DNA from: Geosiphon pyriformis uo1
Taxonomy: Eukaryota > Fungi > Glomeromycota
Direction of reading: 5' to 3'
Length of the DNA stretch: 64,000 bases
Assembly (NCBI GenBank): GCA_016748015.1
Contig: JAAOMT010000213.1
Coordinates: 464,485 to 528,484 of the forward strand
The notes beneath the pieces were generated by a model. It did not search any database, was not told the origin of the DNA, and saw only the letters and a program-made list of their open reading frames with translations. Positions 11,310 to 60,135 of this stretch are shown here, in pieces (position 1 is the first letter of the stretch; the number at the start of each line of letters is the position of its first letter). The position numbers and the translations under genes were made by a program.

Positions 11310-12293
11310 TGTTACCAGACAAAATTAGAAATATTGTTTAGCATAAAATTACCCTTATAAATCTTATTATTAATTAGCATATATTATTATTTCAAATTAT
11401 CACTTATTACATTAGCAAAATGTTCAAAATTATTATTTAATTAATAACTCAATTTGTACATAACACAAATATAACTTAAGTGCGATGATCAATCATGCAA
11501 TACTCTGAAATATGTAACATTCAAAAGTTTGCCAAAATTTGTAAAAATTTGCCAAAATAATTGATAGTTTACTGAAATATCTAATAGTTTGCAGAAATAA
11601 CTTGTAGTTTGCCGAAATGTATTTTTAGTTTAGCAAAATTGTAGAAAAGAGCAAAGTTCAAGTTCATAGAATAGTATTACGACAAGTTGTATAAAAAAAG
11701 AGCTTCTTTCTTTGAAAAAATGTATCTTACTTCAAATTTAATAATTAGAATCATTCTTTACACACAAAAACAAAATAAATATCAAATAAATTCAAAATAC
11801 CAAATTCTTAATTATTTCTCTTAAAATTAACCAATTCCTACTAACAGTTTGAAATTGATTAGCTACCAATTTCAGTAGACTGTTAAAGCACTTCCAGGCC
11901 TGGATCCAAAACGACTTCCATAAATTATCAGTTTTACTTTTTCTTTTACATTTCTTTTATTCTCTTTTTTTTCTTGTTATAAATCATTTGGGTAGTCTAC
12001 AGACAAGAATTCCTGTAGAAGAGTTGACTTTCACAGCAAAGTAACTACACATCTTAGTGAGCTTCCAAATGAGCAATTCCTGGGAAAGAGTTGACGTTTA
12101 CTACAACATAACTATACAAAGTAACTGGCATAGAATTGGTCATTCCACTTATAAGCCCAGCAGTTCAAATTATAGGAAATAATTTGAAGATAAATTCAGT
12201 TATTGGAGGTTCAAATACTTCCCATAATCATGAATTAACAGCATTACAACAAACATACAAGAACTAAAAAGAGACCAAAAACCTCTGGTAACA
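11310..12293 (+). repeat. 5' LTR of element A
   Basis: TGTTA...TAACA; direct repeat of 20214-21197; ~20-bp gtttgccgaaat repeats at ~11525-11650; TATAAAA at 11690. Confidence 0.95.
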
Positions 12294-12295
12294 TT

Positions 12296-12310
12296 TGGTG
12301 CTCTTCTACA
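12296..12310 (+). promoter_or_regulatory. Primer-binding site of A (TGGTGCTCTT)
   Basis: TGG 2 nt after the LTR end; TGGTGCT also occurs in C, D, E and F; complementary to a tRNA ending in AGCACCA (elongator tRNA-Met-like, inferred). Confidence 0.75.
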
Positions 12311-12337
12311 GAAACAACACAGCAAAACAACTTCAAA

Positions 12338-15300
12338 GTGGCGACCACACCAGACACAACAACTCTAGAGTATTACTAATCAATTTACACCCACTGCAAG
12401 CAAAGATTCAACATTCCAGATGGAATTGAAGTTGTCAAGAAATCAGTATACCAATACATTGAAAACTGCATCAACAATTATCTTTTTGGAAATTACAATA
12501 TCTCAAAAGTTAGAAGCAACTTTTACAATAATTTAGTACACTATTCCCAGTTGGAAACTGAAGACCTTAACAGTAAAACACTTGCCACTTACTTTCAAAA
12601 ACTAAATTTTAACATTATCAAGTACTATGAAAAAACATATCTAGTGCAGTCTCAATACTCCATTGATTTTGAATCAGAAACAGAAACAAGCAACAAAGGC
12701 AAACAAAAATTGAAGCAATATTCAAAAACCACCCCAAATACCCCAATACTACCAAAAACAACTGCCAAACACTTACAAACACCTGAACAAGGAACCAGTT
12801 CAAAACTTCCACTTACTATCACATCTTTTTCAGCTTCACTTGCACAGGCACAAACACCTAATTTACCCTTAAATTGATTTGCAAGACTAGAAGATTTTAC
12901 ATCACCCAGAAGTCTCACCAGACAACAAGAACCCCTTCAAACTAGTTCTAATCTCCTTGACTTTCTAGCTGAAAATCGAAGTGAACACTCTGAGACAGCA
13001 GTGAACAAAGAAAACAACTCTGAAATATCTGAAGAAGAATCAATAGACAGTGAAAACAAAGAAGACAAAATGACAGCATACATCACAAAAATCCCTGAAT
13101 TCAATGGAGAAAACATTGAGACCAGTCCCCAAGAATGGCTTGACCAAGTTACTAAAGCTGGAAAGGCAAATGGATGAAATGCTGCCAGAATATTAAGAAC
13201 AATTCTCTACTTTCTTAAAGGAACAGCAGGTGAATGGTTTGAAAACTTAACCACCCCTTTTAATGACTAGACAGCTTTCAAAACTGCCTTCTTAAAACAA
13301 TTCACTGATAACAATACCTCAATCACTCTTTGAAATTGTTTTTGCAATATCAAACAAGAACCCTCCAAATCTGTTATGACTTATATTGGAAAATTCAACA
13401 AACTTCTCAGATGAATTCGCCAACTTGAAACTAATGATTATTATTCTGATGCTCAAATCTTGGATCAATTTATCACTGGTTTAAAAGATAAACTGATTAA
13501 AAAGGTTTGCCCACATGCCCCAGAAGATTTAAACTCTGCCATTCAGCATGCAAAAAAATATAAAATGGCCATGGAAGAAGCCAATCGTACAAAACTCATG
13601 AACTTAGTCATTGGAAAAACCAGCTCAGCAGCTGAAGAGAAAATTGACCAACTCACAAAGAAAGTTGAAAACTATTTCACCAACCAACAACAATAGCAAT
13701 CCCAAAGATATCAACCACCCTAAAGATGGAATCAAAACAGCTTCACATCACTCTCTAATAACCAGTCTCAGAGTTGCCATTACTGTGAAATTCTTGGCCA
13801 CTGGAAAAAAGATTGCAGAAAGCTACAATGAAACCAACAAAATAGGAGTAATCAACATTACCCTCCACCACAACAATTTTATTATCAACCACCACCACCA
13901 GCTTACTATCCACCAAGACCCCAATATCAAAGTAACTATTATCAGCCTGTCTCACAGCCAATTCAACAGCAATACCAACAATTACCCACACAACATTATC
14001 AAGTGCCTGCTTGAAGATTAATTCCACAAAATCAATTTACACCACAAAACCAATACCAAGTAAACAACAATAGAATCAATTCAAACAACCAATTAGTTCT
14101 CCAAAATCCAGCTCAGCCAAAACCCACCTATTATTATACTCAACCTAGCTATTTTATAATACCTGAAGAACAGGATTTTCACCAAACTGCATTCTTGGAA
14201 GGTAGAGCTGCAGCACAACAACAAAACTCTTTCTATACTCCTACCACAATCCCACCAGCCAGAATTGCTGAAAATGCCAACTTTTCAGACATATTCCCTT
14301 TTGAGTTTAAAGCAAATGAGTCACCATTCCTGTTTAGCAATGCGGCCACCAACGAACAAAAAGCAATCACTGCTATGTATACTGAAGCAGAAGTCGAAGG
14401 AAAGGCAATTCGTTTGATCCTAGACAGTGGATTTGCCGGAAGCATCATCACCTACCAGTTAATACAACAGTTAAAGAGAAATGTTGACTGACCAGCTCAA
14501 ACAGTAATTGTTACTGCCGATAGCATAAAAAAGACTCCAGTAGAAAAAATTGACAATTTTTTGTTCACTCTTGATGGAATCACCATTCCAGTCAAAGTTT
14601 TTGTAATAGATGTGCCCCAGTACCAAGCTTTTGTCAGAAATGATTGGCTTCAAAAAGCCAATACTAATCTGAATTGGAAGACACAAGAGTTAACAATCTC
14701 CTACTAAGGACAACATGCCCAGGTACCTGCCACTTGTGGTACATTCAACAAATGCTCCAAAAAAGCCCTGGCTTTTGAATTCGAACTGGAAGAAAAAAAG
14801 CCCATCATTAAAACATTTATGACACTTGGATCAACCTCCAATTGAGCTGATAAAACTAAACAACAGTACTTTTCAACAAATAATTCTCTTGAAACAAAAG
14901 AACTAGTAACAACCGAATGGAATGTTCCCTATTCAAAACCAGAACCACGAAAACAACGCCCTTATATTCCACTCAAATGTAAGGACTGCCACAAGAAACT
15001 CTCTTCAATGGGAGCCTGCATTTCACCTGAAGAAGAATATGAAAATCATACTTGTTATTACTGCAAGGCTTGCCATAGAGAATGATGGGGCCATCTAATA
15101 AAAAGAAGCGGAAAATGGGATAACACCCCTTGTTTAACTTGTGGAGATATGCTACCAGAAGAATGCAATTGAATTGATGTAGCAATGAGAGGAGGAGTCT
15201 GCAATCAGACCTGCCAATATGCTTTATCAATTGCAAAAAAAGTAAAAAGAGAAACACCTTTTAATACGGCATACAACAGTGCTCTCAACAAACTTTATTA

Positions 15301-17971
15301 CTACTTCTATAATGCTGAGATGATTTTTGACCTAGCAATGGCATAAATTAATGGAGCTACCAAAGAAAATGTCCGTCAAATGAAGGAAGCAAAATACATT
15401 GAATACACCATAGAATTAGCTGAATTTGATTATGAAGATGAAGTAGAAGTCTACCACTAAATTGCAAGTCACACTTACCCAACCCAAAAAGCTCAAATTC
15501 AACAATTAGAGCAAATGAACATTAGACTATGCAAAGAATGCATTATGTCTTGTGATGAACAGTAGTGTCCTGAATGCTATGCTCTTAGCATTCCTCTGCC
15601 CAGTAAAAACAATGAGAACAAAATTGAATTTGGAAAACCTGAAGCAACAGAAGAAATTGAAACAACACCCATCTATCTTATCAAAAACCAGCCTGCCTTA
15701 CAACTCAAATACTTCAACAACAATGAACAAGGAATAAAACCCGAAAAAGCACATGAAATTGATGCTGGATATGACCTAAGATATCCAGACAAGGATACTC
15801 TCATTCTCAAACCCAAATCTCTTACAAAAATCAACCTTAAAATTGCTCTCAAAATCCCACCAGGAGCAATGGTTCAAATTGCCTCCCGGTTCTCTCTGGC
15901 AAGCAAAAAAATCAATGTTAGAGGAGGAATAATTGATGCTGGATATACTGGTGACATAACAGTAATACTCTAAAATGAAACTGACAAGCCATTTAAAATT
16001 GAACATGCCGAGAAAATTGCCCAAGCCATTTATTTACCCTTAATCAACATTTCGGGTTTACAATTAGTCAATAAAAGAGAACTATTGAGAAAAAGTAAAA
16101 AAAGAATCCAAGGTTTTGGTTCAATTGGACAATTCACAGTTTTAGTAAACATAGCCCTCAATGAACAGAAAGAATTTCACCAGATTTTACAACTTCCACA
16201 ACCAATTACTATTTCACCCTTTGGAGAATACCCTGAAATTTACACTTGTAAAAAGCTAACAACCACACAACAAATTTTTGAGTCCAATGAACAAATCTGC
16301 TTGGAATATAATATCTCGATTCCAAACATTTATATTCCAAAAGGAACAAAGAAAATCTAAGTTACTTTTTACAATCCCAACAATTTCCCCATAGTTTTAT
16401 TAAATAACTTAGAAATTGGAGTTATTCACAGTAATATCTTTTAACAAGAATTACCCCAAACAATTCCCAATTTCTCTGAAATTATTGGACATTTACTACC
16501 AAAAATCAACCCAAACACCAGCTCTAAAAACTACCATGTTGTTATAGAAAAACTATCTCGAATCAACATAAAACAACTTAAACCACAACAACAAAACCAG
16601 CTTAAAGAGCTAATTGCAGAATTTGCCGATATCTTTGCCGAAAACAACAATAACTTAGGAAGAACTGATTTGGTTCAACACCAAATCTATACAGGAGATG
16701 CCAAACCAAGATAACAACAAGCCTACTGAGTTGCTCCAAAAAGTTACCAATTTATCTGAGAAGAAGTACAACGGATGCTTAACAATAGGCTTATTCAACC
16801 ATCAATGAGTCCATGGGCCTCGCTTGTGGTTCTAGTTAAGAAGAAAAATGGAAAGATATGATTTTGTGTTGATTATCAACAACTCAACAGCATCACCATG
16901 GGAGATGCCTACTCTCTTCCCCAAATTGATGACATGTTAGATGCCCTTGGAAAATCCAAATACTTTTCAACACTAGATCTAGAAAGCGGATACTGGCAAG
17001 TTGCCATGGATCCCAAAGATTGTCCCAAAACAGCCTTCACAACCCAAGAAGAAAACTACAAATTCAATATAATGCCTTTTGAATTATGCAATGCACCAGC
17101 AATATTTCAGAGATTAATAGATATTGTGTACAAAGGACTCCTTTGGAAGTCAGTAGTCATTTATCTTGACGATACTGATATTTATTCTTCATCATTCGAA
17201 TTACACTTAAAACACCTGCAAGAAGTATTTCAACAATTATGAAAAGCAGGACTGAAACTCAACATCGAAAAATTCTACTTTGGAAAAACAAGCTTGGCCT
17301 TTCTTGGTCACATTGTTAGTAAATATAGAATCAAACTGGACCCTGAAAAAATCAGCACTGTCAAAAACTTCAAAACTCTTCAAAATACTACAGAACTAAG
17401 AGGATTTATAGGGTTAGCCTTCTACTATCGGAAGTTTATCAAAGGATTCTCAGAAATTGCAAAACCTCTCAACCAGCTTATCACCAAAAACATCGAATAC
17501 AAATAGACTGCTGAACACCAAAATGCATTTGAAATCCTCAAAGAAAAACTAACCACAGCTCCAATTCTTGCCTACCCAGATTTCAGCAACCAATTCGCGT
17601 TAGCAACAGATGCCTCTTATACTGCCTTTGGTGCCATCCTATCACAGTTAAATGACAATAGAAATGAGCAAGTAATTGCTTATGCTAGCAAAACATTGAA
17701 GCCAGCTGAAAAGAACTACCCTGCAACAGAATTAGAAACTGCAGCAGTAATCTGGGCCTTATATCACTTCAATCTTTACCTCAGACCCAAAGAATTTGAT
17801 ATTATCACTGATAATATTGGACTCAAATGGCTTCAAAACAAAAACACTCAGCTGAATGCCAAACAAATCCGATGGACAGAATTTTAAGCCAACTACCAAT
17901 ACATTGTACATCACAAATCAGGAAAACTCCACACCAATGTTGATTGTTTTTCAAAAATGAGACAAGATTAG
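12338..17971 (+). pseudogene. gag-pol: Element A Gag-Pol: N-extension, capsid, CCHC, protease, Cys-rich module, dUTPase, RT, RNase H; one frame with nonsense mutations
   Basis: ORF fragments 12551, 13460, 14195, 16085, 16898, 17294 and 17696 share one frame; CHYCEILGHWKKDC, LILDSG, FSTLDLESGYWQ, IYLDDT, LATDAS; stop TAG at 17969-17971. Confidence 0.92.
15735..16130 (+). pseudogene. dut: dUTPase domain in Pol of A
   Basis: Trimeric dUTPase motifs DAGYDL, IASRFSL, GGIIDAGYTG, IAQAI, GFGS. Confidence 0.9.
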
Positions 17972-18017
17972 AACATAAAAACAACACCTATTTGAATTAA
18001 CAACAAAACAACAAACA

Positions 18018-19403
18018 ATGAATTCTGAAAACTACAACAATCTTAAACAATATCTGGAGACATTAACAATCCCAACAGATTGGTCCCCAGATAAAAAACA
18101 TTGGTTACAACAACAAGCCAAACAATACTTCTTATACAACAACATTATTTATTATTAAAACTTCAGAAACCAAGACAATCCGCTCAGATTAATACAAGAA
18201 CATAAAAAAAAAACCATTTTATATAACATGCACTCAGACCTTTTATCAGCACATCTAGGAAAAGACAGCACCACCCAGAGAACACTAGCATATTATTTTT
18301 GGCCTCAAATAAGAAAAGGCATTCATGAATATGTTAAGTCTTGTAATAGTTGTTAAAGAAGAGGAGGAACTCGCCCTACAGAACCTTTAAACTTAATCAA
18401 AGTTGGACAGCCATTTGACCGAGTTGGTATCGATTTAGTTGAACCACTCCCTATCACAAACCAAGAAAACCATTATATTGCAGTAGCTGTAGACTATCTC
18501 ACCAAATAGCCTGAAGCCAGAGTCATTCAATGAGCAGATGCGAAATCAGTAGCAAACTTCATCTACAAAGACATCATTTGTAGACATAAATGCCCAATAG
18601 AACTTTTATCTGATCAAGGAACACATTTCGTGAACAATTTAATCCAGGAAATTTGTGAACAATTTAATGTCAAGAGACCATTATCTTTGCCCTACCATCC
18701 ACAAACAAATAGACTTGTAGAACATTTTAACAGAACATTGTGTAAATCATTAGCCAAAGTCTCAACTGATTTTAAGCAAGAATGGGATCTCTTTATTCCA
18801 TCAGTGTTACTGGCATATAGAACACTAAAACAAGATATCACAAAACACACACCATTTGATTAAACTTATAGAAGGACAGCAATATTACCAATTAGTTTCA
18901 CTGTAGAAACATACTCAACACAACCAATCGATAAAAACAATTTCCAGGAAACACTACAACAAAAAGCCTACACTCTGCTTAGCACATTGGAAGGAAAACG
19001 ACAAATAGCAGCCACCCATATTAAACACTCTCAAGCTTAACAAAAAGAACAGCATGACGACAAATTGCCTCCAGTTACCAATGGATTTAAAATTGGAAAC
19101 AAAGTTCTCTTACACAGAACTAAAGCTGAAAAACAATGGAGTGGAAAATTTGAAAATAAATGAGATGAACCATTCTTTATCTATAAAGTCCTAAACAACA
19201 GATCATATAAGCTAAGACTTGATAACAAAATCCTAGCAAAAGTTGCACATGGAGATCGTTTGAAACACTATAATTCTAGAAACAATCCTGAACCATTAAT
19301 TCTACAAATTGGTACACATTCCCTTTTAATCAATCCTGAAGATATTCCCCGAAAATTAGAACCAATAGTTGACATTGAACAACCTCCCAACTTGAACACT
19401 TAA
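18018..19403 (+). pseudogene. int: Stand-alone integrase ORF of A (~461 codons, with stops)
   Basis: Own ATG 46 nt after the Pol stop, in another frame; HHCC region, VGIDLV, SDQGTHF, YHPQTN, GPY/F-like C-terminus; no chromodomain. Confidence 0.9.
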
Positions 19404-19525
19404 TTTGAATTTATCATTATAGTTATATCATTATAATTTAGAAACAATCTCACAAAAACAAAACAAAAATAACATAAAAACCCATACACCAAAAATAATT
19501 TTCTTTTATTTTCAAATCTCTTATA

Positions 19526-20245
19526 ATGTCTATTCCTCAAAACATTCAACAATTATCCCAAAAACTAATGTTAGCTTTAAAAACAATACTCGAATTATCT
19601 ATTACTGTTATTAGAAACCACATTAATTATACCCAAACAGAAGTAGTTACAAATTTAGCTCCAAATGCACAAAAATATCACCTGTATAAGAAGAACACAA
19701 GAAGTTATTCTGGAATTCACCTGCCAGAACTTCTAAAGCTTGCTTTAAGAGAAAACTTAATGCTCACTTCTATTAGTATTCCACCGAATGCTACTATTCA
19801 ACAAAAACTTCAACTGTGTCTTAATGAAAAAAACTATGACTATACTCCAATATATAAATATTTCTACATTGGAAAAACACTTCATGAACGAAAACAGGAG
19901 CTTATAGCAGCAAACCTCACAAAAAAAGCTATTCGGAAACAACTCCACAATAAATTCAAGACAACAGCTGGACCTACAAACAGTTATTATAAACTAAGAG
20001 CTGCTCTTAGACTTTATGACCTATTCCACACCTGTGAAAACGTCCTACAAAACCCAATTTTACAGCCTTTGAAGATTCAATACATTGGAAAGCTCACAGA
20101 ACTGAAATTTCAACAATTTTCAGACCAAATTTCTTCAATAATTTTGGATTATTATCTGAAAATTACAGACAGTACTTGGACTTTGATGGAGCTCAATCTT
20201 AAAGAGGAGGTTATGTTACCAGACAAAATTAGAGATATTGTTTAG
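19526..20245 (+). CDS. Accessory ORF3 of element A, 239 aa, unknown function (open frame)
   Basis: Uninterrupted ATG-to-stop ORF between integrase and the 3' LTR; homologous to the ORFs at 28097-28804, 53454-54089 and 60216-60567; runs through the PPT into U3. Confidence 0.8.
   Translation: MSIPQNIQQLSQKLMLALKTILELSITVIRNHINYTQTEVVTNLAPNAQKYHLYKKNTRSYSGIHLPELLKLALRENLMLTSISIPPNATIQQKLQLCLNEKNYDYTPIYKYFYIGKTLHERKQELIAANLTKKAIRKQLHNKFKTTAGPTNSYYKLRAALRLYDLFHTCENVLQNPILQPLKIQYIGKLTELKFQQFSDQISSIILDYYLKITDSTWTLMELNLKEEVMLPDKIRDIV
20201..20213 (+). promoter_or_regulatory. Polypurine tract of A
   Basis: AAAGAGGAGG-TTA immediately before the 3' LTR. Confidence 0.85.
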
Positions 20246-21197
20246 CATAAAATTACTCTTATAAATCTTATCATTAATTAGCATATATTATCACTTTAAA
20301 TTATCACTTATTACATTAACAAAATGTTCAAAATTATTATTTAATTAATAACTCAATTTGTATATAACACAAATGTAACCTAAGTGCGATGATCAATCAT
20401 GCAATACCCTGAAATATGTAACATTTAAAAGTTTGCCAAAATTTGTAAAAATTTGCCAAAATAATTGATAGTTCACTGAAATATCTAATAGTTCACAGAA
20501 ATAACTTGTAGTTTGCTGAAATGTATTTTTAGTTCAGTGAAATTGTAGAAAAAAGCAAAGTTCAAGTTCATAGAATAGTGTTATGACAAGTTGTATAAAA
20601 GAAGAGCTTCTCTTTTCAAGAAAATGTATCTTACTTCAGATTTAATAATTAGAATCATCCTTTACACACAAAAACAAAATAAATATCAAATAAATTCGAA
20701 AAGCCAAATTCTTAATTATTTCCCTTGAAATTAACCAATTTCTACTAACAGTTTGAAATTGATTAGCTACCAATTTCAGTAGACTGTTAAAGCACTTCTA
20801 GGCCTGGATCTGAAACAACTTTCATAAATTATCAGTTTTACTTTTTCTTTTACATTTCTTTTATTTTCTTTTTTTTCTTGTTATAAATTATTTGGGTAGC
20901 CTACAGACAAGAATTCCTGTAGAAGAGTTGACTTTCACAGCAAAGTAACTACACATCTTAGTGAGCTTCCAGACAAGCAATTTCTGGGAAAAAGTTGACG
21001 TTTATTACAACGTAACTATATAAAGTAACTGGCATAGAATTGGCCATTCCACTTATAAGCCCAGCAGTTCAAATTATAGGAGATAATTTGAAAATAAATT
21101 CAGTTATTGGAGGTTCAAACACTTCTCATAATCGTGAATTAACAGCATTAAAACAAACATACAAGAGCTAAGAAAAGACCAAAAATCTCCAGTAACA
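20214..21197 (+). repeat. 3' LTR of element A
   Basis: Direct repeat of 11310-12293. Confidence 0.95.
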
Positions 21198-21968
21198 GTG
21201 TATTGGAAAGTTGGTTCTAATTCAAAATTTCTGGTGGGTGATTTGGTATCAGACATTGATTGGTTGAGATCCTCCTTGGTGTGGCATCCTGATTCACATA
21301 TGGCTACAGGCTTCATAAGCAAACCATTTGCTGGCTTGCATACATATTTTATGAAGGCCTTACACTATTAACTGTCTGTTGTTGTGTGGAAGTGACTATA
21401 CTCCAGACGTTACTCTAGTATATTATGTTTGTTCTGTGGTGAAGTTGAATTTTCTGATCATGTTTTCTCTTGTGTGATTGACTTCCCTATCCACTGTCAG
21501 TTGTTGGAAACCCATGCAGTTTCCTGGGAGCTGATTTTTGGTTTTTCTTATTCTTCTTTTTGTGTGTCTCAGCTTCTGTTGTCTTGTGCTTTTAATGTCT
21601 CTGTGTTCACAGCTCTCTTTAAAGATTTTGTTTTTGACAATTGGTTCCAGGAAGTTGTGTCTATCTTTCATGATTCCAAACTCACAGGTCAGAGAATTGT
21701 GGAATTTGTGCGTGCTTTCAGTCTCAGCTTCAAGGATGGCATATAGTTGGTTTACATTAAATACCGAGTTCTCATGAAAAAAAATGGGTTGATTCCACTT
21801 GATGGTTTGATACCTGCTTCAATTTTTGGTCTGTTGTTAGGGCTGTTTGGTGGTGTTATTAGATTGCTTGGAATTGCTAATGCTTTTGGTGTTTGTTTTG
21901 GTTTCTGTAGGTTATGTTCATTTTTTTCTGGTATTGGCAATAATGTTTCAGTTCACATAGCTGTGTAA
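21198..21968 (+). pseudogene. pol: LINE ORF2, 3' part with C-terminal Zn finger
   Basis: Continues the frame left at 11309 (YWKVGS); CLFCGEVEFSDHVFSC; ends SVHIAV*. Confidence 0.85.
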
Positions 21969-22024
21969 TGGTGTTTTGATTAATCTGAGTGGCTGGTCAC
22001 ATGTAGAAAAAGCATAATTTGCAC

Positions 22025-22891
22025 TGTTACAGTTTAAGAATTTAGCAAAAGAATCATAAAAATAATATAAACTATTCAATCATAATATAGCACAGTAATA
22101 ATCTTAAAAAGGTAATGATTAACATAGTAGCAAACCCCATCTTGCAATAGTGGCAAGCACCAGTTCACAATAGCAGCCAACACCAACTGGTGATAGCAGC
22201 AAACACCAGGTTGAAATATCAAAAAGAAAGTATTACAATATGTTTTTTCGTAAAACTACAAACATGTATATATACAGTAGCTTTAATATTGAAAAAAGTC
22301 AATCAAGTAATAAAAATCATAACTTATCAAGCAATAAATCCAATTTATTCAACAAACTCCACTTTAAATCGTATTTTTAAATTAAATATCTCAAGAAACC
22401 TTTAAATCAAAAAAAAAAATGAAAAAAAATATTTAAAACTGAATTATCACAACTCCAAAGTAATAAGAAACTCACTTGTGTTAATTATTGAATAAAACTA
22501 TCATTCATCAGTTGAATTTCTTGGAAAAGTAATTCCTGATCAACATTGCTACTAATTGATAAAAGCTTTATTGTGAGAATTAAGAAAAGCACTAAAGACC
22601 ATTAACATTCCGTGTTTCTAGATTAGAGAAACACATCAGGCAATTGCAAGGATAGCCTCAGAGAAGACTCCAGACAGTGGGTAGATTTCAGTTCAGCCTC
22701 TGAGAAGGAATACATAAACACACACAACAATCAGGAATTGAAAAATAACTTACATTATGACACTAAAGAGAAAGCCTTCAGTATAACAGTGCTATTATCA
22801 CACAAATAGAATTAAAGAACTCACAAGAGACTGATTGCAATTAAAATGGGATATCGACAATTAAATATAACAAGAAAACCATCCCATAACA
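22025..22891 (+). repeat. 5' LTR of element B
   Basis: TGTTA...TAACA; repeat of 38805-39678; tagtagcaaacacc-type repeats at ~22125-22215. Confidence 0.93.
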
Positions 22892-22973
22892 TTTGGTGAA
22901 CCCTACGAAAAAAAAAAATCAAAAAGAAAATAATAATTAGCAATAATTCATTGCTAAAAAGGAAGAGACAAAA

Positions 22974-27103: not shown

Positions 27104-28116
27104 TGTTACTGGAGGTTTTTGGTCTCTTTTTTTAAATGTTGGTAATGTTGATTTGCTGTGAATTCACGTTCTCAGGAAGTAGTTGAACCTCCAATAACTG
27201 AATTTATCTTTAAATTATCTTTTATAATTTGAACTTGCTGGGCTTATAAGTAGAATGGCCAATTCTGTGCCAGTTACTTTATGTAGTTATGTTGTAGTAA
27301 ATGTCAACTCTTTTTCAGGAATTGCTCGTCTGGAAGCTCACTAAAATGTATAGTTACTTTGTTGTAAAAGTCAACTCTTCTACAGGAATCTTGTTTGTAG
27401 ACTACCCTAATAATTGTAATAAGAAAAGAAAAGAAAAATAAAAAAAATGTAAAAAAAATAGAATTTTGTCAAGAGAAACGTTTTCTATTCAGGCCTGGAG
27501 TCACTAACAGTTTACTGAAATGGGTAGCTAATCAATTTTAAAACATTAGTTGGGTTTTGAGGATTTTCTAAGTGCAATAATTTAAAGAGTTTGGTTTTTC
27601 GAATTATTTGATATTTATTTCTTTTTGTGTGTGTAGCAATGGTTCTAAGTGATAAATCTAAAGTAAGATACATTTTTCAGAAGAGAAAAGCTCTTTTTTT
27701 ATACAACTTGTTGTAGTACTAGTCTATGAACTTGCACTTTTTCTCTTTGCTCAAATTTCAGCAAACTAAAGATACATTTTGATGAACTACAAGTTATTTT
27801 GCTGAACTATTGATTAATTTGGGTGAACTATTCATAATTTTGACGAATTTCTGTAAATTTCAGCAAATTTCTTATAAATTTCGGCAAATTTCTGTAAATT
27901 TTGGCGAATTTTTAAATGTTACAAAGTTCAAAGTATTGTGTAATTTAATCATCCTACTTTCTGTTATACTAATTAGATTATTTTAATTGAATTGTGATAT
28001 GTGATAATTGATTAAATAATAAATGATAATTTAAAATAATATTAATATACTAATGAATTATAGAAATTATAAGAGTAATTTTATGCTAATTAATAGCTAA
28101 AATTCTATTGGTAATA
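27104..28116 (-). repeat. 3' LTR of element C
   Basis: Repeat of 36037-37029 with one extra ~20-bp U3 unit. Confidence 0.93.
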
Positions 28117-28804
28117 TAATCTCCTCCTCAAGACTGAGCTCCATCGAAGTCCAAGCACTATCTGTAATATTGAGATAGTGATCTAAAATAATTAAAGTAA
28201 TCTGGTCTGAAAATTGTTGAAATTTCAGTTCTGTGAGTTTGCCAATGTATTGGACTTTTATTGGTTGCAGTATTGAATTTTGTAGAACATTTTCACAAGT
28301 ATTAAACAAGTCATAGAGTTTAAGAGCTGCTCTAAGTTTGTAGCGAGTGTTTGTTGGTCCAGCTGCTGTTTTGAATTCATTGTGAATTTGTTTTTGTATA
28401 ATTTTAGGAGTGAGATTTGTTGCTTCAAGTTCCAGTTTTTGTTCATAAAGTGTTTTTCCAATTTGAAAGTATTTATAGATAGGGGTGTGTTCATTGTTCT
28501 GTTCATTAAGAAGTAGTAGAAGTTTTTGTTGCATTGTAGCATTTGGTGAAATGTCAATAGGGGCAATTAAAAGATTTTTTTTTAGTGCCTGCTTCAAAAG
28601 TCTTGGTAATCTATTCTCAGAGTAACTTCTTGTTTTTCTTTTATAGGGGTGATAGTTCTGTAAATGATTTGCTACTAAGACTGTAGTTTCTTTCTGAATG
28701 TAATTAATTTGACTTCCATTAATCGTTATAGATAAGTTAGGGAGTGTTTTCAAGGCTAACATTAATTTTTGGGATATTTGTTAAATATTTTGGGGAATAA
28801 TCAT
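28097..28804 (-). pseudogene. Accessory ORF3 of element C (one nonsense codon near the N-terminus)
   Basis: MIIPQNI*QISQKL followed by a 221-aa open frame; clear homolog of A ORF3. Confidence 0.8.
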
Positions 28805-28946
28805 GATAAAATTGACTAATTATGAAAAGAGAAAATAAAGAAAATTATTTTTGGATATGGGGTTTTTATTTGTTTTTGGGTTTGGGTGTTTTGTAATTAT
28901 TTACTATTTTTGTCTTTGTGTTTTTATTAAAAAATTATTGTAAAAT

Positions 28947-30332
28947 TTAAGTGTTCAAGTTTGGTTGTTGTTCTATTATAATTATTGGTTCTAAATTTTA
29001 GGGAATATCTTCAGAATTAATTAAAGGGGAATGTATACCAATTTGTGGAATTAATGGTTCAGAATTGTTTCTGGAATGATAGTGTTTCAATCTGTTTCTA
29101 TGTGCAACTTTTGCTAATATTTTGTTATTAAGTCTTAACTTATATGATCTATTGCCTAGAATTTCATAAATATAAAATGGTCCATCCTATTTGTTTTCAA
29201 ATTTCCCACTCCATTGTTTTTCAGCCTTAGTTCTGTGTAAGAGAACTTTATTTCCAACTTTAAATTCGTTGGTAATAGATGGTAATTTGTTGTCATGTTT
29301 TTCTTTTTGTTGAGCTTGGGAATGTTCAATATGAGTTGCTGCTATTTTTTTTTTTCTTCCAGTGTACTAAGAAGAGTGTAGGCTCTTTTTTGGAGTGTCT
29401 TTTGAAAGTTTTCTTCATTGATTGGTTGCACTGGGTATGTTTCCACTGTGAAATTAATTGGTAATGTTGCTGTCCTTCTATAAGTAAGATCAAATGGTGT
29501 GTGTTTCATAGTATCTTGTTTTAGTGTTCTGTATGCTAGTAACACTGATGGAATAAAAATATTTCATTTCTGGTCAAAATTTGTTGAGACTTTGGCTAAA
29601 GATTCACACAATGTTCTATTGAACTGTTCTACAAGTTCATTTGTTTGAGGGTAATAAGATAATGATAGAGGTCTTTTGACATTGAACCATTCACAAATTT
29701 TTTGTATCAAGTTGTTCACAAAATGTGTTTTTTGATCAGATAAGAGTTCAATTGGGCATCCATGTCTACAGATAATGTCTTCATAGATGAAATTTGCTAC
29801 TGATTTTGCATCTGCTCTTTGGATGGCTCTAGCTTCAGGCCATTTGGTAAGATAATTCACTGCAACTGCAATATAACGATTTCCTTGGGTTGTGATAGGT
29901 AATGGTCTGACTAAATCAATTCCAACTCTGTCAAAAGGTTGTCCAACTTTGATTGGATTTAGAGGTTCTGTGGGGTGAGTTCTTCCTCTTCTTTGACAAT
30001 TATCACAAGATTCTACATATTGTTAAATGTTTTTTTGCATGTGGAGCCAAAAAATAATGTTCAAGGGTTCTTTGAATTGTTTCCTCTTTTCCCAAGTGTG
30101 CTAAAGACAGATCTGTGTACATGTTGTATAAAATTGTTTCTTTTTCATTCTCTTGTACTAATCTGAGTGGCTGGTTTGGTTTTCTGTGATTTTTATAATA
30201 GATTTTGTTCTGGTGTATGAAATATTGTTTTAATTGGTGTTGTAAGTGGTGTTTTTCACTTGGAGACCAGTTTTTTGGCATGGTAAAAGTCTCCAAATAA
30301 TTTTTAAGATTGCTGTAGTTTCTGAGATCCAT
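28947..30332 (-). pseudogene. int: Stand-alone integrase ORF of C
   Basis: Starts MDLRNYSNLKNYL; YLTKWPEA, SDQKTHF, YPQTN; same 1386-nt length as in A. Confidence 0.9.
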
Positions 30333-30389
30333 TCTTGTTTGGTTATTTTGTTGGTAAGTTGGTAAATTGTAGTGGAATTGTTGTTGGTA

Positions 30390-33300
30390 TTAATTTTGTC
30401 TCATTCTTGAGAGGCTATCAACATTGGTATGTAGTTTTCCTGGTTTGTAGTGTACAATATATTTGTAGTCTGTTAAGAAGTTATTCCATCAAGACTGTTT
30501 GGCACTTTGTTCAGTTTTCTTTTTATTAAGCCATTTGAGGCCAATGTTATTCGTTATTATGTCAAATTCTTTTCCATTCTTCAGATATTGTTGAAAATGT
30601 TTAAGAGCCCAAATAACTACAGCAGCTTCTAATTCAGTTGAGCCATATTTGAGTTCTGTTGGCTTGAGTGTTCTGCTGACATAGGCAATAACTTGTTCTT
30701 GGCCATTTTCATCCAATTGTGATAAGATGGCACCAAATGCTATGTGTGAGGCATCAGTGGCTAATTGGAATCATTTGTTGAAGTCTGAGTAAGCAAGAAC
30801 TGGGGCTGTTGTCAATTTTGTTTTGAGAATTTCAAAAGCTTTTTGTTGTTTTTCAGTCCATTTGTATGGTACGTTTTTGTTGGTAAGATAATTGAATGGT
30901 TTGGCAATTTCTGAGAATTTTTTTATGAATTTTTGATAATAAGAGGCTAATCCCACAAATCCTTTTAGTTCTGTAGTATTTCTGGGGGTTTGAAAGTTTT
31001 TGACAGCACTGATTGTTCCTGGATTTGGTTTGATTTCATCTTTACTAACTATGTGTCCAAGAAAGATTAAGCTTGTTTTTCTAAAGTGACATTTCTCAAT
31101 ATTTAACTTTAATCCTGCTTTCCATAATCATTGAAAAACTTCTCGCAAGTAAATGAGATGGGCTTCAAAGCTTGGTAAGTATACATCAGTATTATCAAGA
31201 TAAACAACTACTAATTGCCATAAAAGCCCTTCATAGACAACATCCATAAGTCACTGAAATGTTGCTGGTGCATTGCAAAGTCCAAAAGGCATAACATTAA
31301 ACTCATAATTTCCCTCTTGAGTGGTAAATGCTGTTTTGGGTCTATCTTTTGGGTCCATTTCGACTTGCCAGTATCCACTTTCCAGGTCTAAAGTTGAAAA
31401 AAACTTGGCTTTTCCTAGAGCATCTAGCATGTCATCAATTCTTGGAAGAGAGTAGATATCTCCAATTATAACACTATTCAGTTGTTTATAATCAACACAG
31501 AATCTGATTTTTCCATTTTTTTTTTAACTAAAACTACTGGTGAGGCCCAAAGATTTCTTGATGGTTGAATCAATCCATTATTGAGCATTCTTTGGATTTC
31601 TTCTCTAATGAATTGGGGGCTGGCAGATGGCACTCAATAAGCTTGTTGACGTTTTGGTAGAGCATCTTCTGTATGGATCTAATGTTGAACAATGTCTGTT
31701 TTTCCCAAGTCATTGTTGTCTTTTGCAAATATATCTGCAAATTCAGCTATCAATTGTTTCAATTGTCTTTGTTGTTGAGGTTCTAAGGGACTCATATTGA
31801 TTTGAGAGAGTTTTTCTTCCAACAAGTGGTAGTTTTCAGTAGTGGAAATAATATTTGGATTTGGGAGTAGAGTGTGCTTTACAATTTCGATGAAATTAGA
31901 GACAATTTGAGGGTTTTCATCTTGAAAGATATTGCTATGTATGATTCCAATTTCTAATTTGTTTAATAAAACAATAGAGTAATTATTGGGGTTGTAGAAT
32001 GTAACTTGAAATTTTTTCATTCCTTTGGGAATATAAACGTTTGGAATTGATATTTCATGTTTCAAACAGATTTGTTCATTGGATTCAAAGATTTGTTGTG
32101 TAATGGTGGGTTTTGAGCAAGCGTAAATTTTGTGATGTTCTCCAAAAAGTGAAATGGTAATTGGCTGAGGAAGTTGAAGAATTTGGTGAGATTCATTTTG
32201 TGTATTAAGAACTATGTTTACTGGGACTGTAAATCGTCCAGTTGAACCAAAACTTTGAGTTCCTCTTTCACTTTTTCCCAATTGTTCTCTGTTGTTTACT
32301 GATTGTAAACCCGAAATGTTGATTAAGGGTAAGTAAATTGCTTGAGCAATTTTTTCAGCATGTTCAATTTTGAATAGTTTGTCTGTCTCATTCTGTAACA
32401 TGATGGTAATGTCTCCAGTGTATTCTGCATCTATAACTCTTCCTCTAATATTGATTCTTTTGCTTGCCAATGATGATCTGGAGGCAATTTGAACCATTGC
32501 TTCTGGTGGAATTTTAAGAGCAATTTTGAGATTGATTTTTGTCAAAGACTTTGGTTGGAGAATCAAAGTATCTTTTTCTGGGTATTTTAGGTCATATCCA
32601 GCATCAATTTCGTATGCTTTTTCTGGTCTGATTCCTTGGCCATGGTTGTCAAAATATTTAAGTTGTAGAGGTGGTTGTTTTTCAAGAAGATAAATGGGAG
32701 TGGTTGGTAGTTCTTCTACTAGTTCAAATACTCTAAATTCGATTTCATTTTCATCATTCTCATCTGGCAGAGGAATGCTAAGAGCATAACATTCTAAATA
32801 CCATTGGTCATTACAAGGCATAACACATTCTTCACACAATTGAATGTTTATTTGCTCTAATCATTGAATTTGAGCTTCTTTGGTCGGATATATGTGGCTT
32901 GCATTTGGTGGTAGGTTTCTACTTCATTTTTATAATCAAATCCAGCTAATTCTATAGTATACTCAATATATTCAGCTTCTTTCATTTGGCAGACATCTTC
33001 TTGGGTGGCTCCATTTATCAATGCCATTGCTAGATCAAAAATCATTTCAGCATCATGAGGGTAGTGGTAAAGTTTATTGAGAGCACTGTTGTATGCTGCA
33101 TCAAATGGTGTTCCTCTTCTGACTTTTTCCGAAATTGATAGAGCACATACTCCTCCTTTTATTGCTACATCAATCCAATTGCATTCTTCTGATAGCATTT
33201 CTCCACATGTAAGGCAAGGTGTGTTGTCCCATTTTCTACTTCTTTTTGGAGATTCAAATCGTTCTTTATGGCATGCTTTGCAAAAGTAACAGGTACGAGT

Positions 33301-37029: not shown

Positions 37030-38609
37030 CCATCTATATTCTGGAAGATACCATCATTGGATACCTCGGAATGGAGCTAGAAAATGCATCAACACCACAA
37101 AAAATTCTAAATTTCCCAGAAATCGCCCTCTACTGTAAACTCACTTTAATAAATTGGCAACAACTGTTGGAATGCTATCAATTTATGACAGAAAAATTAA
37201 CCAAATTAAACATTGGAACAATGAATCCTGACCAACAGCGACAATTAAAAGCATTAGTTTTAAAATACTCTGATATATTTTCATGAAATGACAAATTTGG
37301 AAGAACCAACTTGGTTCAACACCAAATCTCCACTGGAGACACCAGACCTGAAAAACAATGCACTTACCATGTTCCACCAATGGAACATAATTTTATCAAA
37401 GAAGAAGTCCAAAGCATGTTAGAAAAAGAAATAATACAACTATCAATGAGCCTATGATCTTCACCAGTTGTTTTAGTAAGGAAAAGGAACGGAAAAATTA
37501 GATTTTATGTCGACTATTGCAAACTAAACAGCAAAACAACCAAAAACTCATACCCAATACCATTAATTGACAAAATCTTTGACATTTTTGGAGGAGCAAA
37601 ATGGTTTTCTACACTGGACTTAACCAGTAGGTACTGGCAAGTGGAAATGGACCCAAAAGACAGGCATAAAACAGCATTCACAACACAAAATAGCAATTAT
37701 GAGTTCAATGTAATGCCATTTGGATTAACAAATGCTCCCGTGACATTCCAAAGACTAATAGATGTAATTTACTCCAGAATCCTGTGGCAATCTGTTGTTG
37801 TCTACTTGGATGATACAAATGTTTTCTTGTCAAAATTCACAGATCATCTCCAACATTTACAACAAGTTTTTAAGAGATTGAGACATGCTGGACTTAAACT
37901 AAATCTAGAAAAATGTTTCTTTGGGAAAAATGAGCTAGTATTTTTAGAACACGTAGTTGGAAAAGATGAAATAAAACCAGATCCATCAAAAATAGATAAA
38001 GTAAAAAATTTTCCAGTATTTCAAAACGTTTCAGAAGTTAGAAGCTTTTTAGGACTCACATCTTACTACTGCTGCTTTGTAGAAAACTTTTCAAACATCA
38101 CCAAACCTCTTAATTATCTACTATCCAAAAATGTGAAGTTTGAATGAACTAAAGCACAACAAAAAGCTTTTGAGTACCTTAGACAAAAGCTCATTGAATC
38201 ACCAATAATGATTTATCCGAATTTCAACAAGAAATTTATTTTGGCCACAGATGTCTCTAGAACTGGACTTGGAGCCATTCTGTCACAAAAAAATGATAAT
38301 GAAAGAGAACATGTAATTGCTTATGCCAGCAGAAGTCTCAGTACGGCAGAGCAAAACTATGCAGCACATGAACTTGAATGCTTAGCAGTAGTCTGGAGTT
38401 GTGTTCATTTTAACACATATTTATGATACCAACCCTTTGAGATTACCACAGATTATAGAGGTCTGGTCTGGTTAAATAACAAGAAAGCGCTAAAAGAAAA
38501 ATATGCCAGATGGTTACAAACGTTAGCATCATACAATTATATTATCAAATACAAAGAAGGTACCAAAAATGCTAATGCTAACTGTTTGTCAAGAATGAGA
38601 CATACATAA
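37030..38609 (+). pseudogene. pol: Element B Pol, 3' part (RT, RNase H)
   Basis: FSTLDLTSRYWQ, MPFGLTNAP, VYLDDT, LATDVS, AYASRSL; ends CLSRMRHT*. Confidence 0.92.
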
Positions 38610-38638
38610 AAATCACCAACCCACCCGCCACAACAATA

Positions 38639-38791
38639 ATGAACATAATAACAACCAACAGTATTGAATGATTTACCAACTCACAATTTTAAAAATTACA
38701 ACAACAAATTAATAACACAGTATTGAACCACTATAGTAACTTAGAATTTAATGAAGAAATTAACTTCAATTTTGATGGAACTCAATCTTAA
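38639..38791 (+). pseudogene. Residual ORF of B: integrase-type start fused to the last ~45 codons of ORF3
   Basis: MNIITTNSIE*FTNSQF*KLQQQINNTVL...FDGTQS* aligns with the ORF3 C-termini of A and E; integrase absent. Confidence 0.6.
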
Positions 38792-38804
38792 AAGGAGTAG
38801 ATAA

Positions 38805-51700: not shown

Positions 51701-52004
51701 AAGAGAACATCCAATAGCTTATGCCAGTAGAAGCTTAAGTCCAGCTGAAAAGAACTATGGAACTCCAGCACTGGAACATTTAGCAATCTATTGGACAGTC
51801 ATGAAATAAAAAAAATACTTGAGCCAAAAGTTTGAAATATACACAGATCACAAGGGACTAACTTCAATTCAGAAACAAGAATTTGCAGACAATCACCATG
51901 CCAGATGAAAAATAGAACTTTCACCATTTAACTATATAGTATATTATAAAAAGGGAAAAGATAATGGAAATGCTGATGAATTGTCACAAATAAGACAAAT
52001 CTAA
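45772..52004 (+). pseudogene. gag-pol: Element E Gag-Pol (dUTPase ~49770-50175)
   Basis: GTG 45772; capsid MAYTPIAKLDKF at 46741; CHYCDKQGHLQFEC; LILDSESAG; Cys-rich module; DAEFDL, ASRSSL, GGIIDA; LDLDSGYWQ; ends ADELSQIRQI*. Confidence 0.92.
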
Positions 52005-52034
52005 AAACATTCCAACCCAAAAATATAACAAAAG

Positions 52035-53394
52035 ATGAATATACAAAAATACCAACAACTACAACATTATATAAAGACTCAATTGTTCAAGAAAAAATTA
52101 TCTCAAAAAAAACAAAGAGACATAAAACAATAATCCAAATATTTTATCAACCATCAAAATATACTTTACCAGAAAAACAAAAGAAATCCAGATTAACCAA
52201 CCAGAGAAAGAAACAATATTATTCAATATGTATTCAGACCCAACAGCAGGGCATTTTCACAAAGAAGCAACCATAAAAAGAACCAGAAAAAGATACTATT
52301 GGCCAGCAATGTATCCAGACATTATCCAATACATGCAAAATTGTGATGTTTGTCAGAGAAAAGAAAAAACAAGACCAAGTAAACCATTAAAACCAATCAA
52401 AGTGGGACAACCATTCAATCATATTGGAATTGACTTAGTTGGACCATTAACAATCACCAGCAGAGGCAACAGATATATCACAGTAGCCATGGACTATCTT
52501 ATCAAATAACCAGAAGCAAAAGCCATTCAAAGAGTAGATGCAGAATCTGTTGCTGAATTTGTTTATCAAGATTTGATTTGTTGACATGGATGTCCAAAAA
52601 AACTATTATTAGATCAAGAAACTCACTTTGTGAACAGAACACTGGCAGAATTAAGTCAAAGATTTGGAATTAAAAAACCATTATCATCGTCATATTATCC
52701 ACAAACCAATGGACTAGTTGAAAGATTCAATAGAACATTGTGTGAAGCAATCGCCAAAATCAGTCAAAAAAACCAAGACAAATGGGATTTGTTCATACCA
52801 TCAGTATTATTTGCTTATTAGACAATAAAGCAAGATACCACACAAGTAACACCATTTGAACTAGTATATGGTAGAACAGCAATATTACCAGTTAAGATAG
52901 AGGTCAATACATATCCAACTGAACCAATAATAGAAGATAATTTTCAAGAAACATTGTTGAAAAGAACATATAACTTAATGGAAACACTAGAAAACAGACG
53001 ACAAAAAGCAGCTGACAATATACAAAAGTTACAAGAAAAACAAAAAGAGAGACACGATAACCAACTATCAGACAAACCAGTTGAATTCAAGATTGGAGAC
53101 AAAGTACTTCTACATTGTACTAAAGTGGAAAAACAATGGAGTGGAAAATTTGACCCCAAATGGAACAGATTATTTCACATTGAAGAAATTCTTGGAAATG
53201 GAGCTTACAAATTAAGATGGAACAACAAAATCTTAGCCAAAGCAACACATAGTGATTGACTGAAACAATATTACCAGATAACATTATTATCTACCAATAA
53301 CATTTCACAACTAAAAGTACAAAGAATACTAATTCAACCAGATGAGATTCCACGAGATCTGGAACCAATCATAGTTATTGAACCAAACATGTAA
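52035..53394 (+). pseudogene. int: Stand-alone integrase ORF of E
   Basis: MNIQKYQQLQHY; GHF..YYWP..CDVC; IGIDLVGPL; YPQTNGLVERFNRTL; GPY/F-like tail. Confidence 0.9.
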
Positions 53395-57900: not shown

Positions 57901-58800
57901 AATGTAATGTTTTTTGGACTCTGTAACACTTCTGCCACATTCCAGTGCCTCATAGATATTGTATACAAAGGAATCCTGTAGAAATCAGTCATAGTATATT
58001 TAGACAACACCAATGTTTTCTCTAAAACATTTGATGATCATTTGCTCCATCTACAACAAGTTTTCGAATGCCTTCGTAGTGCCAGATTGAAACTCAACCC
58101 CGATAAATGCTTCTTTGGAAAAACCAAGTTAAAGTTCTTAAGACATGTAATCGACAAAGATGGAGTCAAACCCAATCCAGATAAGGTCCAAAAAGTCAAG
58201 GATTTTTTAGCTCCAATCAACCTCAGAGAATTATGAGGATTTCTAGGATTGGCGGGCTATTATTGTCAATTTGTTAAAGGTTTCTTAAACATTGCAAAAT
58301 CACTCTATTATTTGTTGTCCAAATATGTACTGTACTTGTAGAAGGAAGAACAACAGAAAGCATTCAATTATCTCAAGTAGCATTTGATTACATCTCCCAT
58401 CTTGATTTACCCAGATTTTACTAAATGGTTCATTGTCACTATGGATGCCTCGAAAAATACTCTAGAAGCAGTATTATTCTAGATAGGACCAAACAATAGA
58501 AAACATCTAGTTGCCTATGCCAGTCGTAGCATGAGCCCAGCAGAAAAGAATTATAGCACAACAGATCTGAAATGCCTTACCATTTATTGGGCCATACAGA
58601 CTTGGAAACATTACCTCAGTCAACCATTTAACCTATATACCGATCACAAAAGACTTATTTGGTTACTCAATAATCCACAATTAGAAGAAAAATATGCGAG
58701 ATGGAGTACTTATTTGCAACAATTTCCACTCAAAGTCTATTACAAAGAAGGATCTAAGAACACTAATGTCAACAGTTTGTTGAAGATACCACAAACCTAA
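54989..58800 (+). pseudogene. pol: Element D Pol (protease, Cys-rich module, dUTPase ~56575-56975, RT, RNase H)
   Basis: IKLILNSSSVGSII; CLACG, CDHCLIPC; DAGFDL, GGIIDAGY, IAQAIF; LDLASSY*Q, YLDN; ends NSLLKIPQT*. Confidence 0.9.
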
Positions 58801-58810
58801 TTTCAGACCC

Positions 58811-60135
58811 ATGGACACACTCACTTATCAACAACTACATCAGTACCTATCAACACTATGTTTTAAGAAGATATTATTTTAACAGAAATGAGATACCATA
58901 TGAAAACAAGCCCAAAATTATTTTATTTAAGACAACCAATTATAAAGAACAGTGAAAAGGAAACTATATTATATAATATGCATTCTGATTCAACCACAAG
59001 ACACTTTAACAAAGATGCTACTCTCGAAAGAACACTAAATTTATATTATTGGCCAACAATGTACAAAGACATTTTCGAATATGTGCTCAATTGTGATGCA
59101 TGCCAGCAAAAAGAAGGAGCAAAATTAACAGAACCACTTTGATCCATTCCAGTTGGAAATCTATTTAATAGAATTGGAATCAATTTGGTTGGACCTCTCT
59201 CGATTACATTTCAAGAAAATCACTATATCACTGTAGCCATAAATTATCTTACAAAATGGCCAGAAGCCAGAGCAATCCAAGTGGCCGATGCCAAAACAGT
59301 AGCTGAATTTGTGCATCAAGACTTAATTTGCTGACATAAATGCCCAAAAGAATTATTATCTGATCAGGAAACACACTTTGTTAATAATACACTAACTGAA
59401 CTAAGTCAATGGTTTGAAATAAAGAGACTTTTATTGTCACCATACCACCCACAAACAAACAGACTGGTAGAACAATTTAACAGAACACTGTGCAAAGCAC
59501 TAGCAAAAATAAGTCATGAAAACAGACAAAAATGAGACTTATTCATACTCTTTGTACTCTTGGCATACCGAACATTAAAACAAGATATGACTCAGTTCAC
59601 ACTATTCAAACTAGTCTATAAAAGAAAAGCTACATTACCAATTAAATGAGTGATACCATCATATCCAACAAAAACAATCAATGAAGAGAATTTTGAAGCT
59701 ACCTTATACCAAAAAATGTACCAGCTAATGGAAACATTGGAAAACAATTGAAGAACAGCAGCTAACAATATTAATTATGCTCAAGAATGACAAAAAGAAA
59801 AACATAATAAATGTCTAGCAAAACAACCAATGGAATTCAAGATTGAAAACCAAGTACTGTTACATCATACAAAAGCTGAGAAACAGTAGAGTGGAAAGTT
59901 TGACCCAAAATAGAATGATCCATTCCACATACACAAAGCATTAGAAAATGAAGCTTACAAATTACAATTGGAAGACAGGATTTTAAAGAAAGTAGCACAT
60001 GGAAATCGGTTAAAAATTTATCATGTAAAACAGGAATCATCATCATCAGTACCTTAACTAGAAACACAAATTTTATTAATCAGACCAGAAGATATATCAT
60101 GAAATCTGAAACCAATCATCATCATTGAAATATAA
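58811..60135 (+). pseudogene. int: Stand-alone integrase ORF of D
   Basis: ATG 10 nt after the Pol stop (MDTLTYQQLHQYL); YYWP..CDAC; YLTKWPEA; SDQETHF; PYHPQTN. Confidence 0.9.

Follow-up and report, generated by a model that had tools for sequence, protein, structure and literature searches.

A separate integrase reading frame behind a conserved Pol stop in Ty3/gypsy-type elements of Geosiphon pyriformis and their relatives

The window, meaning the whole stretch of 64,000 nucleotides of Geosiphon pyriformis DNA analysed here, is AT-rich, and self-comparison shows that it holds five nested LTR elements of the Ty3/gypsy type (A to E), all of them decayed. The five LTR pairs are 87–93% identical, and their differences are nearly all transitions (50–127, versus 1–5 transversions per pair). 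The five families are only about 56–72% identical to their nearest neighbour in the window. The elements lie as follows.

11310-21197, plus strand: element A, bounded by an LTR pair
about 22025-39678, plus strand: element B, bounded by an LTR pair, with C inserted within it
inside B, minus strand: element C, with an LTR pair
41766-61627, plus strand: element D, bounded by an LTR pair, with E inserted within it
inside D, plus strand: element E, with an LTR pair

Direct LTRs with TG...CA ends, a purine tract and a target-site duplication, a feature of the Metaviridae, are present, and the 4-bp target duplications are exact in B and D, carry one mismatch in C and E, and are ambiguous in A. The Pfam domains follow the gypsy order of protease (PR), dUTPase, reverse transcriptase (RT), RNase H (RH) and integrase (IN), and the genes within one LTR pair run Gag-PR-dUTPase-RT-RH, stop, IN and a third ORF. 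In a search with the IN of A, the closest named match is a G. pyriformis gene model with 78% identity; the accessible text of PMC11952901 reports that LTR sequence makes up 41.2% of the G. pyriformis genome. The features of A and the Pol-IN junctions of the other elements are these.

11310..12293, plus strand: A 5' LTR (TG...CA), 93% identical to the A 3' LTR, followed by a TGG-starting site resembling a primer-binding site
12302..17971, plus strand: A Gag-protease-dUTPase-RT-RNase H in a single frame, 1890 codons with 29 stops including the terminal one
17969..17971, plus strand: A Pol stop TAG, four codons past the RNase H end motif
17972..18017, plus strand: A spacer, 46 nt, A/C-rich, no ATG, unstructured (z 0.22)
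18018..19403, plus strand: A integrase cistron with its own ATG at 18018; H2C2 zinc domain, rve core and SH3-like C-terminus; 7 decay stops
19526..20245, plus strand: A third ORF, 239 aa, without significant Pfam match, extending into the 3' LTR
20214..21197, plus strand: A 3' LTR, with a purine tract just before it
30333..30392, minus strand: C Pol stop TAA (30392-30390) and 57-nt spacer
28947..30332, minus strand: C integrase cistron with its own ATG at 30332, one frameshift near 30060
28097..28804, minus strand: C third ORF, 68% identical to the A third ORF
38607..38804, plus strand: B Pol stop TAA (38607-38609), 29-nt spacer and residual ATG (38639), then a remnant that by eye resembles the end of a third ORF; integrase absent before the 3' LTR
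52002..53394, plus strand: E Pol stop TAA (52002-52004), 30-nt spacer and integrase cistron from the ATG at 52035, decayed
58798..60135, plus strand: D Pol stop TAA (58798-58800), 10-nt spacer and integrase cistron from the ATG at 58811, decayed

In all five elements, Pol ends at a stop four codons after the DxLSR-type motif of RNase H, and the positions that the first-pass annotation gave for these stops check out. The motif M-(N/D)-x3-Y-x2-L-x2-Y opens IN in A, C, D and E, as read there, and the spacers between stop and start are A/C-rich and G-poor (A 46, C 57, E 30, D 10 and B 29 nt), with exactly one G each. That the spacers cover all three frames is true of the relatives described below (16, 14 and 12 of 42 non-redundant junctions) and is not true of the IN-bearing spacers of the window, which occupy two frames: those of 46 and 10 nt give +1, and those of 57 and 30 nt give 0. 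The third frame is represented in the window by the ATG of B alone, after which IN sequence is absent. B has no integrase at all, not even a decayed one, only 195 nt lying between its Pol stop and the 3' LTR.

Because the window copies are heavily transition-decayed, the stops might be C-to-T decay of a pol gene that was originally fused. Decay stops are rare in the five RT-RH frames (21 in 1895 codons) and the families have diverged, so that five stops at one codon are not attributable to decay; the chance of five co-located decay stops is estimated at about 1e-4, even assuming 15% per sensitive codon. The A junction was compared with other copies in contigs from X1, a run whose sample may be that of the window itself, with differences counted at 5% or more; runs X2 and X3 gave no contigs there. 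There are 49 differences, and none of the 40 listed falls in the stop or the ATG. At 17885 and 18156, where A has decay stops, most other copies have sense codons; the junction stop, in contrast, is not among the listed variants. The B junction, with differences at 10% or more, has 14, all of which leave the stop untouched, so the stop is unchanged among the listed differences of both families. The intact relatives carry the stop as well, which rules out a decay origin of the junction stops and leaves this reading with a negligible probability.

A search with the IN of A returned 449 proteins of near length, a design that is blind to fusions. The best 120, which were listed, are mostly about 420 aa, and IN begins at the homologous position in 96 of them, with MD, ME or MN in 95 of those. 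Met-Asp/Glu/Asn is the NatB acetylation pattern, and such a start suits a real N-terminus without proving one. A search for longer proteins gave two with close scores among the 120 listed, both of them eukaryotic gene models that lack the IN start as well as the end of RNase H. An RT-first search was run independently of IN: its 37 top-scoring proteins all lack IN, and 36 of them end at most 27 residues from the RNase H end. A search of representatives returned mostly gene models with several RTs; the top two matches in a single stretch are without IN, and later ones are mostly fused. Among 80 metagenome loci, 57 have an RNase H end upstream of IN, 18 do not, and 5 lack a usable IN start. An in-frame fusion occurs in 0/57, and the combination named in advance as speaking against a separate gene, a sense codon in place of the stop together with an in-frame spacer, is likewise absent in 57/57. 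All three catalytic (DDE) motifs are kept in each of the 50 full-length INs (50 of the 57 loci). The best relative of known structure is the Ty3 integrase (7q5b, E 4e-47); no chromo family appears at the IN C-terminus in P0001 or in the Pfam lists of the best 120 matches. Viral contigs yielded one distant locus and no match to the hairpin pattern described below. Together with the window, these intact relatives bear out the annotation of integrase as a separate cistron, and the split into two reading frames is real with near certainty.

The anatomy of the junction varies greatly among the relatives. The spacer ranges from -20 to +506 nt among the 57 loci; an 827-nt spacer at locus L050 is due to a frameshift in the Pol extension, and this locus was left out of later counts (56 loci, 42 non-redundant). 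The Pol stop and the IN start overlap in 13/57: in four loci they form TAATG, and in nine the ATG lies 8–20 nt inside Pol. Three of the overlapping loci do so by 11 nt in another frame. As the Pol stop, TAA occurs 34 times, TAG 13 times and TGA 10 times. Stop readthrough or a frameshift that yields an ordinary Pol-IN fusion would fit C and E, whose spacers are in frame, and one relative, P0315, is a true in-frame Pol-IN fusion with an IN close to the split clade; the relatives also seem to recode the Gag/Pol border, and in many of them an apparent frameshift or an in-frame stop precedes Pol itself. However, the even use of the three frames, the choice of all three stops and spacers of up to 506 nt make this route very improbable. 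A single readthrough or one fixed frameshift is excluded as a clade-wide rule, in line with the first-pass annotation.

Splicing could place a 5' leader in front of the IN ATG. Alternatively, removal of an intron could take out the stop and so carry IN into the particle as a Pol-IN fusion. Seven NCBI gene models join RT-RH to IN (one from Cetraspora and six from Rhizophagus clarus), and a YAG lies shortly before the ATG of D. However, neither the RNase H end motif nor the IN Met is present in the seven models, whose joins differ, as predicted introns would to judge from the models; the five R. clarus models from the RT-first search join RNase H to IN at differing points. The CTAATTTCAG of D had been pointed out as a splice signal, but it is not general, 8/35 spacers being wholly without AG and no YAG peak being found before the IN ATG. 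A branch-point bias at the N-A/V-D codons is absent (20/57 versus 34/124), a conserved 3' splice site was not found upstream of the IN start, and a fusion has no need of a conserved Met. Splicing is therefore unlikely, and of the three routes first proposed for IN, namely reinitiation, a spliced RNA and a subgenomic RNA, it is the weakest, while the other two both stand.

The trees, which were built without named reference elements, place the split elements apart from the fused matches. In a quick IQ-TREE tree of RT-RH with 44 rows hand-picked from 152, all 27 split or IN-less rows are grouped together by a branch (SH-aLRT 85), and P0315 is placed as their sister. In the FastTree tree of all 152 rows, a branch (89) holds 57 IN-less, 42 split and 6 gene-model rows together with P0315, which is nested weakly. 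This topology is compatible with a single old origin of the split, and P0315 may be either a sister or a re-fusion.

The preferred explanation, to which roughly even chances can be given from the layout of the sequences, is that ribosomes restart after the Pol stop on the same genome-length RNA to make IN. Ribosomes would finish Pol and restart at the IN ATG; in the window elements they would have to scan no more than a short A/C-rich spacer (10–57 nt) that has neither structure nor ATG, and relatives would use a stop/start overlap or place RNA structure next to the ATG. IN would then arrive as a free protein and be packaged non-covalently, by binding Gag-Pol or RNA. The earlier proposal that IN is packaged independently of Gag-Pol accordingly holds in that IN is not covalently part of Gag-Pol and is slightly too strong otherwise, since IN could ride in by binding.

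Restart is favoured by the stop/start overlaps, the ATG-poor and unstructured spacers and the chains of ORFs, which amount to a polycistronic layout. The overlap is the arrangement described for termination-reinitiation in the accessible parts of PMC10275272 and PMC11921876. The IN start also has a purine at -3 in 65/75, a good start context. Spacers of 20–165 nt contain 4 ATGs versus 21.3 expected, with 0/400 shuffles as low, and 24 of the 27 non-redundant ones have none. ATG is the second most depleted of the 64 triplets in both spacer groups. This depletion is not specific, because GTA is as depleted as ATG, CAT is partly so and the control region is mildly ATG-poor too (14 versus 20); CAT and GGG are low in one spacer group. 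The window spacers fold no better than shuffles, four of the five z-scores lying between -1.1 and +0.4, apart from a small stem that surrounds the stop of E (z -3.0).

Several observations weaken restart. At 46, 57 and 30 nt, the spacers of A, C and E are longer than the 20 nt that the accessible text of PMC10275272 gives for TURBS-type restart, a limit of about 20 nt that is kept by D (10 nt) and by 13/57 relatives. The spacers longer than 165 nt (6 of 42 non-redundant) hold 1–10 ATGs each, a hairpin in 23 loci would block scanning, and one close relative, P0315, is fused in frame. Restart behind a recoded Pol could also give very little IN. Since the norovirus TURBS-type restart is said, in the accessible text of PMC10275272, not to need Kozak context, a good start context fits a separate mRNA equally well.

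Such an mRNA would be a subgenomic RNA for IN, transcribed from a promoter within the RNase H region or released by processing of the genomic RNA, with the spacer as its 5' leader and the hairpin or pseudoknot-like motifs marking or protecting its 5' end. The good start context and the ATG-free leaders agree with it, the long ATG-containing spacers are mostly free of ATG from the conserved motif to the IN start (L046 is an exception), and the dose of IN would be independent of the recoded Pol. On the other hand, the tight overlaps in 13/57 loci would serve no purpose, and the window spacers are unstructured. A subgenomic RNA is the main alternative to restart, though a rather doubtful source of IN. 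Different sub-lineages may use different routes.

A subset of the relatives carries a bulged hairpin of 10 pairs that lies 2–10 nt before the IN ATG (31 nt in L072). In this hairpin 96.5% of the cells are paired and compensatory changes occur in 8/10 pairs, with 0/500 shuffles and no slid control coming near, a significance that is overstated because the structure was derived from the same, related sequences. RNAalifold yields the same fold. A model built from 20 copies finds the hairpin in 23/81 loci, once each and beside the IN start, three of them outside the training set. Against the window, the model finds none at the junctions, the best hit (E 0.064) lying inside RNase H. An Rfam search of 10 loci left the hairpin unmatched and returned four chance-level matches, none at a junction. 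The hairpin is an RNA motif new here and absent from Rfam. Six loci with long spacers carry a second spacer motif, and two of these six have two copies of it. The covarying hairpin so near the ATG would suit IRES-like entry, in which RNA structure recruits ribosomes internally without prior translation of Pol. However, the hairpin is missing from the window and from 58/81 loci, has no Rfam match, spans only about 40 nt and folds weakly as a single sequence (z near 0), which makes internal entry an improbable route.

The reading frames around IN extend the polycistronic layout. Several long spacers contain a small basic ORF, and in L040 an extra ORF overlaps the IN start. A third ORF of at least 100 aa follows IN in 24 of the 38 loci with at least 500 nt downstream; it matches no Pfam family, and the third ORFs of the relatives are only weakly similar to that of A (best E 6e-4 in the set of 24).

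Element B ends in TG...CA and is flanked by its 4-bp target duplication. From the RNase H end to the LTR, 29/29 bins are covered by many variant contigs of X1 (depth is not a copy number), 17–29 of them at several points between spacer and LTR; no single listed contig spans the whole stretch, and the junction shows no joints. The variant-contig cover, the TG...CA ends and the 4-bp duplication together suggest that B belongs to a multi-copy family that moved without an IN of its own. If IN is able to act in trans, such an IN-less family could spread.

Compared with known systems, the window elements resemble Ty3/gypsy elements (Metaviridae, for example yeast Ty3) in their TG...CA LTRs, their PR-RT-RH-IN order and their H2C2/rve/SH3 integrase. 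PosPlaTy3-5 of Postia placenta has a dUTPase between PR and RT, as here, according to the accessible text of PMC2864245. The accessible parts of PMC3248453 and PMC2864245 present Ty3/gypsy IN as the final portion of the pol polyprotein, whereas here IN is a separate cistron outside the Pol polyprotein, followed by a third ORF. The window elements are thus a variant of the Metaviridae and not a canonical member. In the caliciviruses with TURBS, the hypovirus CHV1, the victorivirus HvV190S and SART1, as far as the accessible text describes them, the start of a second long ORF overlaps or closely follows the first stop, like the TAATG of the relatives (4/57). The accessible sources place TURBS upstream of the stop and require the start to be no more than about 20 nt away from it, whereas the hairpin here sits between stop and start. 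SART1, a non-LTR element, needs an RNA structure downstream of the stop (PMC10275272). In the Caulimoviridae (CaMV, with TAV-driven reinitiation), a reverse-transcribing element has its polyprotein split into consecutive ORFs with short overlaps or spacers, in the accessible text of PMC5902531. A TAV homologue was not found here, the third ORF having no family match in Pfam. Caulimoviruses are not known to have an integrase or LTRs. In foamy viruses, Pol is produced separately from Gag and its packaging is non-covalent, but this Pol is translated from a spliced RNA, and IN remains part of it. Human LINE-1 restarts at ORF2 after a spacer of about 60 nt, and is not known to carry LTRs or an integrase.

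A separate IN ORF is undescribed in the freely available full text that was searched; priority could still be affected by the element table among the supplements of PMC2864245. Such an ORF is not mentioned in the accessible text of PMC3248453, PMC2864245, PMC5911963, PMC4427930, PMC11952901, PMC11921876, PMC5902531, PMC10275272 or bioRxiv 10.1101/2021.03.30.436303. The covarying hairpin, the third ORF and the signs of B as a multi-copy IN-less family are new here.

In textbook LTR retrotransposons and most retroviruses, IN enters the particle only as the tail of Gag-Pol. The elements described here depart from this Gag-Pol-IN polyprotein rule, a real and lineage-wide departure, and a lineage in which that link is missing has to produce, dose and package its integrase by other means. 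In the relatives, one and the same intercistronic junction occurs naturally in many forms, as an overlap, a bare spacer, a hairpin or a pseudoknot-like motif, and these are useful for studying how ribosomes restart in fungi once a long ORF has been translated. In annotation, tools for transposable elements see intact members of the split clade as broken, and gene finders appear to bridge the Pol stop with introns. A tentative wider picture, somewhat short of even probability, is that of an old fungal lineage with a polycistronic genome RNA encoding Gag-Pol, a free integrase, a third ORF and optional small ORFs. Its translation signals between RNase H and IN would be several and interchangeable, one of them an undescribed structured RNA of 40 nt by which restart or internal entry would be driven. 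Its IN would be loaded non-covalently, so that families that keep RT may drop their integrase and borrow another.

A bulged hairpin with covarying pairs lies immediately 5' of the integrase (IN) ATG in L053 (4458-4507), one of the metagenome loci of relatives, and in 22 further loci in a model search of 81 loci, and its bulge and loop sequences are conserved among these loci. A search of Rfam with 10 of the loci gave no match to the hairpin, and the hairpin model did not find it in the window. A second conserved motif of 30 nt, which could form a small pseudoknot, is located in the RNase H/IN spacer of L020, L027, L034, L046, L052 and L055 and is present twice in L027 and in L055; a similar pseudoknot is possible in L067.

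The stop between RNase H and IN is bridged in seven public gene models found by searches with IN or reverse transcriptase (RT) (P0122, P0123, P0306, P0307, P0310, P0336 and P0337). The RNase H end motif is missing from all seven, and the bridges are probably predicted introns. A single in-frame stop separates the Gag-protease ORF from the RT-RNase H frame at L013:2747, L015:2500, L018:5041, L027:5334 and L074:3292, suggesting from sequence that readthrough may occur at this unusual site.

Further ORFs surround IN:

L040:3112-3297, small basic ORF inside a long RNase H/IN spacer
L055:1733-1936, the same
L027:6887-7222, the same
Window 19526-20245 (+), third ORF 3' of IN in element A
Window 28097-28804 (-), third ORF 3' of IN in element C

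A third ORF is present 3' of IN in 24 of 38 relatives' loci and has no family in Pfam; a Y-x-L-G-like motif, judged by eye, is common to many of these ORFs. ORFs that look unrelated to them occupy this position in E and D. Element B (window 22025-39678), which appears to be multi-copy, retains Gag, protease, dUTPase and RT-RNase H, but its IN is missing and little of the third ORF is left.

Each LTR pair in the window differs by 50-127 transitions versus 1-5 transversions, a sign of strong directed hypermutation. Decayed ORFs at window 6000-11300 and 21200-22000 (+) look LINE-type by eye (endonuclease, RT, RNase H), and A looks to be inserted into this element.

Pol runs 180-361 aa beyond RNase H in L012 (4940-5716), L019, L029, L032, L035, L044, L053, L057, L068 and L072. 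This extension contains an acidic stretch as well as a Cys/His cluster; a Pfam search with that of L012 gave no match. In the window elements, protease and dUTPase flank a Cys-rich region (about 14950-15600). The Pol extension of L070 (2357-3013) resembles thymidylate kinase (Pfam E 4e-5, below the cut-off), and NUDIX domains are listed for the protein matches P0297, P0300 and P0319. The clade seems to accumulate nucleotide-metabolism domains.
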